A DNA stretch of 64,000 bases from Escherichia coli (GCF_003334815.1 NZ_QOWO01000007.1); one strand, 5' to 3'. Positions 24,870 through 25,146 are shown, counted from the first letter of the stretch. Numbers and translations are program-made. The notes: generated from the letters alone by a model not told the origin.

Positions 24870-25106
24870 GCAGGGGGGCGCTTTTCCCCTCACCCTAACC
24901 CTCTCCCCAGAGGGGCGAGGGGACCGTATTGTGCAAATATTGTTACCCCAGCAACAAACAGGCTCATACAGCCCCTAACCCTTTCATGGCGATGGCTGGG
25001 ACGGTTCAGACCTTGCCGAATATTCTCCAGCACCGTCTCCATGTTTTCACCACAACAGCTATTCGGCTCGGTCTGCCCCCTCGCTCTTTCAGGGAGAGGG
25101 TGACCG
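24870..25106. repeat. Pair of inverted G/C-rich repeats (about 30 bp each) in the fabI-ycjD spacer
   Basis: 24886-24922 CCCCTCACCCTAACCCTCTCCCCAGAGGGGCGAGGGG, and its inverted relative at 25075-25102 CCCCCTCGCTCTTTCAGGGAGAGGGTGA. Confidence 0.6.
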
Positions 25107-25146
25107 GCGGTTCAGTTCCTGCAGAATATTCTCCAGCACCGTCTCC
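25017..25146. repeat. Direct repeat: the ycjD 3' end is duplicated about 107 bp downstream of the gene
   Basis: Identical 23-mer GAATATTCTCCAGCACCGTCTCC at 25017-25039 and 25124-25146, with similar flanks (CGGTTCAG...). Confidence 0.7.

Follow-up and report, generated by a model that had tools for sequence, protein, structure and literature searches.

The spacer between fabI and ycjD in a 64,000-nt stretch of Escherichia coli DNA (NZ_QOWO01000007.1; the whole stretch is referred to here as the window) is probably the 3' flank of a strain-variable module composed of ycjD and copies of the repeat BoxC. The ycjD gene encodes a protein of the DUF559 family, and on the comparisons described below BoxC would be the cognate DNA of the DUF559 nuclease, with the E. 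coli copy of the arrangement in a decayed state. Behind this reading is the observation that, in many phyla, DUF559 genes of the YcjD type have inverted, BoxC-like palindromes with three arms on either side. Few uncharacterised nuclease families are as widespread as DUF559, and the ycjD gene of K-12 is uncharacterised, too. The part of the window from approximately 24700 to 25500 corresponds to the fabI-ycjD-sapF region of K-12-like E. coli, with all three genes on the minus strand (Table 1), and the spacer is 100% identical to that of strain 675SK2 and 99.7% identical to that of K-12 derivatives.

Judged by their sequences, the G/C-rich elements of the spacer are BoxC, in three copies that we call A, B and C. 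The family was named BoxC in the 1990s, later PIT (“potential intrastrand triplex”), and then TMECO in Holder et al. 2015 (PMC4666352); it has been known in E. coli since the 1990s, occurs in hundreds of bacterial genomes, and marks hypervariable loci (PMC4666352). Each element consists of three arms, which read Y1-Y2-R on one strand and Y-R-R2 on the other. An arrangement of two pyrimidine arms and a purine arm, each of 8-11 nt, is found in copy A and in copy B of strains E1 and N96, and is absent from copies B and C of the window. Copy A is intact, and its plus strand comprises Y1 CCCCTCACCC, loop TAA, Y2 CCCTCTCCCC, loop AGA and R GGGGCGAGGGG, followed by a conserved tail that extends to ∼24950. 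TMECO no. 9, listed as CCCTCGCCCCTCTGGGGAGAGGGTTAGGGTGAGGGG, type A mm, at MG1655 1,351,239-1,351,204 (Table 1 of PMC4666352), is identical to the reverse complement of positions 24887-24922. As single-stranded DNA, the two strands of copy A fold with -9.7 and -12.4 kcal/mol (Watson-Crick folding), and for copies B and C the folding does not improve on that of shuffled sequence; intrastrand triplex formation in vitro has been reported for BoxC/TMECO (PMC4666352).

Copy B is type-B-like. The K-12-like form lacks 12 bp (GAGGGTTGGGGT), the deletion lying between direct GAGGGT repeats, and the full-length form, present in strains E1 and N96, is CCCTCGCCCTTTCAGGGAGAGGGTTGGGGTGAGGGT, which differs from TMECO no. 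10 in the second loop only. The YcjD C terminus, SPSP here and SPSPQPSP in the longer allele of E1 and N96, is encoded by this copy, whose hairpin loop contains the stop codon of ycjD (TGA, 25091-25089). Copy C is decayed, although strain E1 retains 13 further arm bases (GGGGTGAGAGTGA); it adjoins a fragment of ycjD directly, reads Y1-Y2-R on the minus strand, and lies tail-to-tail with copy A. The conserved tail of ∼35 nt after the R arm is also present in other BoxC copies, and fits the original 56-bp definition of BoxC. A scan for terminators (a G+C-rich stem plus a T-run) gave none at copies A, B or C, and an Rfam scan of 24000-26000 (E<=1) gave no RNA family at the BoxC copies, the matches in that interval being some weak miRNA-like ones on the sapF-ycjD hairpin (see below) and one sub-threshold match to a small RNA.

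The association of gene and repeat is not confined to this locus. In Enterobacter, Klebsiella, Kluyvera, Phytobacter and other genera, nearly all YcjD homologues have the C-terminal sequence PSPRPSP*, encoded by the two pyrimidine arms of BoxC (read-through gives KGEG). None of the enterobacterial ycjD loci that we fetched adjoins fabI or sapF, and thus gene and repeat co-occur in differing chromosomal contexts. A wider sample of 80 loci, one genome per species, was obtained by scanning with an alignment of 23 homologues, so that selection was by protein similarity alone; it includes all classes of Proteobacteria as well as Elusimicrobia, Nitrospirae, Chloroflexi, Melainabacteria, Omnitrophota and others. 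The element detector was a simple search for G/C hairpins with a pyrimidine arm and a purine arm. Per kb and locus, such hairpins number 7.5-8.8 at the DUF559 stop codon and 4.5 just upstream of the start, on a flank background of 0.06. An element is present at the 3' end of 63 of the 80 DUF559 genes (79%) and at the 5' end of 56 (70%), compared with 36 (5.0%) and 25 (3.4%), respectively, of 726 control open reading frames (ORFs) from the same loci (Fisher p = 1e-51 for the 3' end; 3e-47 for the 5' end). These counts argue against the palindromes being ordinary terminators of the sort found around other small genes.

The bracketing elements are oriented with respect to the gene. Upstream elements read Y-R-R2 in 40 cases versus 6, and downstream elements read Y1-Y2-R in 41 versus 6, so that the third arm faces the gene; the full order Y-R-R2/gene/Y1-Y2-R is unambiguous in 23 of the 80 loci, with approximately 17 more in which the arms are ambiguous. 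The 5' and 3' elements of one locus are mutual reverse complements, with a mean local alignment score of 49.9 within loci versus 26.1 between loci, and none of 10000 permutations reaches the observed score for the matching of ends. In four loci (L032, L036, L045 and L029; Table 1), the two ends form terminal inverted repeats whose arms are 360-457 nt apart. Translation of the BoxC-like 3' elements differs across phyla: any of the three frames may be used, or the element may follow the stop codon (as in PSPxPSP, PHPxPLP and LTPxLS), and the constraint is therefore on the DNA rather than on the protein. A conserved protein-coding role of the BoxC tail was considered, and was rejected on the same grounds.

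Some individual loci are also of note. On one contig that carries two paralogues, the hairpin loops of the two differ (GCAAGC for L031; AGA for L045), although this is a single case. In an Enterobacter metagenome-assembled genome (MAG), a type B and a type A element are seemingly fused into one (CCCTCTCCCTGAAAGGGAGAGGGTTAGGGTGAGGGG; L015:4290-4345), with the protein tail shortened to LLPSP, and the fused element resembles the “palindrome effect” deletions of Holder et al. In three Gastranaerophilales MAGs (L050, L054 and L061), the DUF559 ORF runs through the 3' palindrome into an ispE-like frame (..CPAKINLSLKVTGKR..), and this apparent DUF559-IspE fusion is conserved in all three.

The bracketed cassette is a discrete insertion in unrelated genes. 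It lies in frame inside hrpA in three related Nitrosomonadales/Gallionellaceae genomes, and inside priA, ygiQ and a DNA methyltransferase-like ORF in others (Table 1). For the hrpA insertion, the protein model TIGR01967 matches as two stretches with DUF559 between them, at residues 223-331, and for the priA and ygiQ hosts the protein model is likewise matched in two stretches around DUF559. Comparison of two of the hrpA orthologues, which are 87% identical, shows additional in-frame, gene-less BoxC-like doublets in L049 with no counterpart in L045, among them a clean insertion of 50 aa (...SLTPTPLPKGEGLKTERHSSSLSPGERAGVRE...). The arms of the L049 doublets are 97-100% identical to the inverted repeats that flank DUF559. 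Recent transposition of the DUF559 gene itself was considered and rejected, as paralogues in the same genome are just ∼68% identical in DNA.

YcjD, a protein of 117 aa, matches the Pfam family PF04480 (DUF559) over residues 4-111 (E=1.5e-49), the NCBIfam model NF007294 (267.8 bits; cut-off 218) and the PDB entry 3hrl (E=1e-27), and D49, E60, D62 and H66 are invariant in the alignment of 23 homologues. A member of the Vsr/DUF559 clade, I-Bth0305I, is a proven homing endonuclease (PMC3424549). YcjD shares the fold and the catalytic core with it, as with Vsr, and I-Bth0305I shows that the fold can drive the homing of its own gene (PMC3424549). YcjD differs from these proteins in that there is no adjacent cytosine methyltransferase, and in that the gene is not inside an intron or intein. 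A part in a defence system was also considered for YcjD, and was rejected because the PADLOC defence-system models gave no match. The E. coli gene has BoxC on its 3' side only, with no 5' repeat. Its start (25437-25442) is GTG ATA GAT in the window, and GTG ATG GAT in four of the five other E. coli alleles read; in strain N96, ycjD begins ATG GAT, with no GTG codon. The ATA at the second codon is likely a mutated ATG start, and K-12-type YcjD may therefore be poorly expressed. With the 5' repeat missing, copies B and C damaged and the ATG changed to ATA, the ycjD/BoxC of E. coli appears to be a decayed version of the cassette.

Elsewhere in E. coli, BoxC is a dispersed family. The 53 nt around copy A occur at a median of 18 places per genome in the full set of 5426 complete E. 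coli genomes, and a 41-mer identical to the copy A region is located between tktB and ypfG; further BoxC copies of K-12 are found at tktB-ypfG, hrpB-mrcB, ygfF-gcvP and alx-sstT. Genomes with a copy at the fabI locus have 9-30 BoxC places (median 20) and those without it have 1-20 (median 6), a difference that is confounded by phylogroup. Nissle 1917 and ABU 83972 are among the strains with just 1-8 places. Four of the five published K-12 TMECO inverted pairs consist of Y-R-R2, a spacer of 16-28 nt and Y1-Y2-R, with no gene. Two of the MG1655 doublets, ygfF-gcvP (L092:237-330) and alx-sstT (L093:248-343), have homologous spacers (TAAATATTCGCGCCAGTGCCGGCCTGTT and TAATTTTTCGCACCGATGCTGGCCTGTT) and homologous outer flanks as well, which indicates that the dispersed unit is a composite of ∼130 bp, not two independent 36-nt motifs. 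Relics of the ycjD 3' end were sought in the spacers of the hrpB-mrcB, ygfF-gcvP and alx-sstT doublets, and no resemblance was seen; likewise, there is no other ycjD-like DNA in the 5426 genomes. BoxC loci are hypervariable between E. coli strains, for a reason described as unclear, and mobility functions have never been found near the motifs, their origin and the mechanism of their instability being left open by Holder et al. (PMC4666352).

The ycjD/BoxC module (∼24871-25439) is present in 3378 of the 5426 genomes. In genomes that lack ycjD (e.g., O157:H7), a block of ∼9 kb, eefRABCD, with genes for a TetR regulator, an MFS transporter and an RND pump, occupies the place of the segment between ∼24845-24870 and the sapF terminator hairpin. 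The block is the published eefRABCD/ycjD alternative at fabI-sapF, in which ycjD is found in phylogroups A, B1 and C (PMC12817139). In eef-type genomes, megablast coverage of the spacer ends at query position 123 (24845 of the window), and a blastn alignment to O157 reaches 24870; the left edge of the variable segment lies at the outer edge of copy A. The same work reports that ycjD is 12 nt longer in ST69 and ST182, and gives the 3'-end insertion without explanation (PMC12817139). It describes the same polymorphism, but treats ycjD as a placeholder ORF; the 12-nt difference is not recognised as a BoxC arm, and the BoxC copies and the duplication are not mentioned. Both alleles can be found interrupted. 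In O157:H7 strain 1130 (L004:2039-7582), the eef operon is broken, with the IS3-family element IS1203 in the adaptor gene and an RND permease annotated as frameshifted, and in strain ETEC6 (L010:1288-2418), an IS1B insertion splits ycjD.

The spacer itself contains a tandem duplication, which emerged from aligning the spacers of six E. coli lineages and then the two halves of the spacer against each other. The repeat finder gives inverted G/C-rich arms at 24898-24922 and 25077-25101 (25 nt, 80% complementary) and a direct repeat of 39 nt (25002-25040 and 25108-25146; 90% identity, spacing 106 nt), the second copy of which lies inside the 3' end of ycjD. A preliminary description of this DNA had listed a pair of G/C-rich repeats in opposite orientation with a copy of the ycjD 3' end between them. 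The inverted arms and the copied fragment are real, but there are three elements rather than two, the overlooked one having its core at 24972-25002, and the homology covers a unit of ∼106 bp. The exact 23-mer that it had also pointed out exists (25018-25040 and 25124-25146, the first copy having been placed one base off); such pairs are expected by chance ∼3e-5 times in 64 kb. The units are 72% identical to each other, and each runs from a stretch of ∼35 nt through a BoxC core to the final 39 nt of ycjD. The ∼35 nt are the conserved BoxC tail, and so the duplicated unit consists of the ycjD 3' end plus one complete BoxC. In the direction of ycjD, the order is ycjD, B, relic (39 nt), C and inverted A, and Enterobacter-type relatives have the simpler order gene, BoxC (type B) and inverted BoxC (type A). 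The relic would encode ETVLENIRQGLNR, and the translation of the ORF at 24890-25042 begins METVLENIRQGLNRP.

On these alignments, the repeated unit is a tandem duplication, one copy of which then evidently decayed in Escherichia. Tandem Repeats Finder found nothing here, because the units are too diverged (72%), and it is the alignment that demonstrates the duplication. The two-unit layout is present in IAI1, B27, 10034940-2, E1 and N96, and in 3367 of the 3378 ycjD-positive genomes both units lie in one contiguous piece; no single-unit spacer allele was seen among them. The units of N96 are 85% identical to each other and 74-77% identical to either K-12 unit, which points to gene conversion or a repeated event. 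Published knowledge of the locus is extended in a small way by the third BoxC copy, by the duplicated unit and by the explanation of the 12-bp difference as part of BoxC.

We consider it probable, as said at the outset, that these features belong to a nuclease-plus-repeat arrangement, which might be selfish or domesticated and would be comparable to REP/RAYT or to insertion sequences (IS) with miniature inverted-repeat transposable elements (MITEs). The autonomous unit would consist of a three-arm inverted repeat of ∼40 nt, the nuclease gene and a second inverted repeat; inverted doublets of BoxC would derive from this unit and have no gene, and both forms would be able to insert in frame into essential genes without destroying them. 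The local duplication in the window may have arisen incidentally when DNA broke or replication slipped at BoxC, through the repair of breaks made by the nuclease or by the DNA structure, and the same process might be the source of the 12-bp deletion and perhaps of the exchange of eef and ycjD. The match to PDB 3hrl, the conserved acidic and histidine residues, the homing-endonuclease clade and the larger number of BoxC places in genomes with the module (confounded, as noted) are consistent with such a role. If it is true, the action of the nuclease at BoxC would explain the hypervariable BoxC loci of E. coli, this spacer and the eef/ycjD swap.

A number of points weigh against the arrangement just proposed. 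The binding or cutting of BoxC by DUF559 is putative. Between 1 and 20 BoxC copies persist in E. coli strains that lack ycjD, and the gap in copy number (20 versus 6) is confounded by phylogeny (B2 versus A and B1). The 5' repeat is missing in Enterobacterales, and the similarity of 5' and 3' elements could partly reflect the BoxC variant that each genome has of its own. DUF559 orthologues are syntenic across genera, with no sign of recent bursts of gene transposition. Within E. coli, the two-unit layout in 3367 of 3378 genomes marks the duplication as old and fixed, with no visible current activity, and slippage at a structured repeat is enough for a tandem duplication, so that a nuclease is not needed.

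The position of a ycjD fragment between two oppositely oriented BoxC copies, together with the dispersed and polymorphic nature of BoxC, might suggest that a small palindromic element inserted here and duplicated ∼40-50 bp of the ycjD 3' end as its target site, which was the first interpretation offered in the preliminary description. The spacer has three copies of BoxC, however, and both ycjD fragments are accompanied by a separate BoxC with tail, in the same relative position and orientation. The repeat unit thus contains the element instead of flanking it, which in effect rules out a target-site duplication; the 106-bp unit also far exceeds typical target-site duplications, and no such flanking duplication is present at the K-12 BoxC copies of tktB-ypfG, hrpB-mrcB, ygfF-gcvP and alx-sstT. 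We therefore regard this interpretation as exceedingly improbable. The other interpretation offered there, a remnant of an older ycjD-like 3' end, is compatible with the data, although its end product is the same as that of a simple tandem duplication and the two are inseparable at this locus. In its fuller form, this interpretation makes copy C the BoxC of an older ycjD-like gene, which would have been overwritten, in all except its last ∼39 nt, by a second ycjD plus BoxC, through homing-like or homologous recombination, as one step in a serial occupation of the site. The relic followed by its own BoxC and tail would fit such a replacement, as would the occurrence of the cassette as a discrete insertion unit elsewhere and the greater likeness of the N96 units to each other than to those of K-12, which suggests repeated events or gene conversion. 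The six aligned strains contain no longer pseudogene remnant upstream of the relic, and E. coli has no second ycjD-like DNA that could have served as donor, and on balance we think gene replacement unlikely.

The spacer might instead be a fixed regulatory or structural feature, i.e., a terminator or insulator of ycjD or an upstream element of the fabI promoter that is kept for expression. Its position between two genes, the ycjD stop codon in a hairpin loop, and the conservation of the two-unit layout in ycjD-positive strains would be expected of such a feature. However, 38% of E. coli lack the whole segment and have the same fabI protein. The region from 24723 to ∼24870 is universal, and so must hold the fabI promoter; since eef strains keep an identical essential fabI without the BoxC segment, the BoxC copies are not required for fabI expression. 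The poor folding of copies B and C and the lack of a terminator-like site (stem plus T-run) at any BoxC copy also argue against this function, as do the published tests, in which PIT/BoxC elements had no promoter or terminator activity (summarised in PMC4666352), and the translation of the same elements within the hrpA, priA and ygiQ frames of other taxa. A regulatory function is accordingly a rather improbable explanation, and the earlier placing of the repeats in the fabI promoter region is weak, because eef strains share just 24723 to ∼24845-24870. The view that the G/C-rich elements are a dispersed palindromic repeat with presence/absence polymorphism at this site has, on the other hand, held up well: the repeats are clearly not unique to the locus, and the site is polymorphic rather than invariant.

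The nuclease-plus-repeat reading can be compared with several known systems. BoxC copy A and the eef/ycjD polymorphism were known before, and the association of DUF559 with BoxC appears to be new. In the BoxC/PIT/TMECO literature, inverted pairing of type A and type B and strain-to-strain instability are described features of the family, and copy B of the window resembles type B; copy A alone is listed at this locus, and neither an endonuclease nor Vsr nor ycjD is mentioned (PMC4666352). The elements described here differ in their association, across phyla, with the 3' end of a gene for a DUF559 nuclease. No paper linking the DUF559/ycjD family to the BoxC repeat was found in the searchable literature, the coverage of which is incomplete, so that an earlier description is possible. 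The resemblance to REP/REPIN-RAYT lies in a single-copy, mostly vertical nuclease gene flanked by inverted copies of a short palindromic repeat, which is also found in intergenic regions as singlets and inverted doublets, and whose taxon-specific sequence matches that of the gene-adjacent copies. Flanking on both sides is a property of the DUF559 family at large, but not of the E. coli copy. RAYT is an HUH/Y1 (IS200/IS605-like) transposase, whereas YcjD has the Vsr-like PD-(D/E)XK fold in ∼115 aa; YcjD is therefore not a RAYT, and at most an analogue of one. In addition, REP is a simple hairpin, while BoxC has three arms (Y1-Y2-R), and the DUF559 cassette and doublets can sit in frame within genes. 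The last property is reminiscent of Rickettsia palindromic elements (RPE), which the present elements resemble in their in-frame insertion into conserved genes (hrpA, priA and ygiQ) and in the insertion polymorphism of doublets in a coding region. As for IS and MITEs, the DUF559 ORF is bounded by terminal inverted repeats of ∼40 nt, and the gene-less doublets resemble non-autonomous derivatives, but the cassette lacks a transposase-family protein, a target-site duplication was not identified, and the gene does not occur as near-identical copies within one genome.

From these likenesses, we tentatively suggest that the YcjD-type DUF559 proteins may be the missing partner enzymes of the BoxC/PIT/triplex-motif repeats, and could form a second REPIN-RAYT-like system, independently evolved on a Vsr-fold nuclease. 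If true, this would be a second long-lived partnership of nuclease and repeat besides REP/RAYT. Both the repeat family and the nuclease family are orphans, and a physical link between them that is specific and statistically strong gives each of them a testable function. There is also an impact on annotation, as in-frame insertions in hrpA, priA and ygiQ appear as spurious “fusion” proteins and as PSPxPSPxGEG tails. For the window itself, the significance is modest, and consists of a known repeat, a known polymorphism and an explanation for a small, old duplication.

Table 1. Coordinates of features in the window and of DUF559 cassettes and terminal inverted repeats at other loci.
Feature	Position	Strand	Basis or remarks
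fabI (enoyl-ACP reductase), left neighbour	23934-24722	-	ORF; annotated fabI in matching records
fabI upstream region common to all E. coli, eef-type included	24723-24870	.	megablast / blastn coverage
BoxC copy A, intact, three arms	24886-24922	+	reverse complement of TMECO no. 9 (type A mm)
Tandem unit 1: BoxC tail, decayed BoxC C, ycjD 3' relic	24935-25040	-	72% identity to unit 2
BoxC copy C, decayed (core 24972-25002, tail 24971-24936)	24936-25002	-	unit and BoxC-copy alignments
Relic copy of last 39 nt of ycjD	25002-25040	-	direct repeat, 90% identity
Tandem unit 2: BoxC tail, BoxC B, real ycjD 3' end	25041-25146	-	alignment, direct repeat
BoxC copy B, type-B-like, 12-bp internal deletion, weakened hairpin	25075-25104	-	alignment with type B copies and strains E1, N96
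ycjD, DUF559 protein (Vsr-like PD-(D/E)XK nuclease fold), 117 aa	25089-25442	-	Pfam/NCBIfam/PDB matches
Perfect 16-bp hairpin downstream of sapF, right edge of variable module, overlaps annotated ycjD GTG start	25440-25483	.	sequence
sapF	25510-26316	-	
Cassette in hrpA	L045:3335-7606, L049:3299-7942, L085		
Cassette in priA, Micavibrio	L044:3521-6181		
Cassette in ygiQ, Hydrogenophilus	L042:197-2989		
Cassette in DNA methyltransferase-like ORF	L019:1328-5884		
Terminal inverted repeat, L032			arm 41 nt, 100% complementary
Terminal inverted repeat, L036			arm 42 nt, 95% complementary
Terminal inverted repeat, L045			arm 37 nt, 100% complementary
Terminal inverted repeat, L029			arm 40 nt, 80% complementary

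The hairpin between sapF and ycjD has the stems CACCTCATTCTGACAA and TTGTCAGAATGAGGTG. The stems are common to the eef allele, in which the loop is different. This hairpin explains the weak miRNA-like Rfam matches mentioned above, as well as two mirror-image promoter-like matches.

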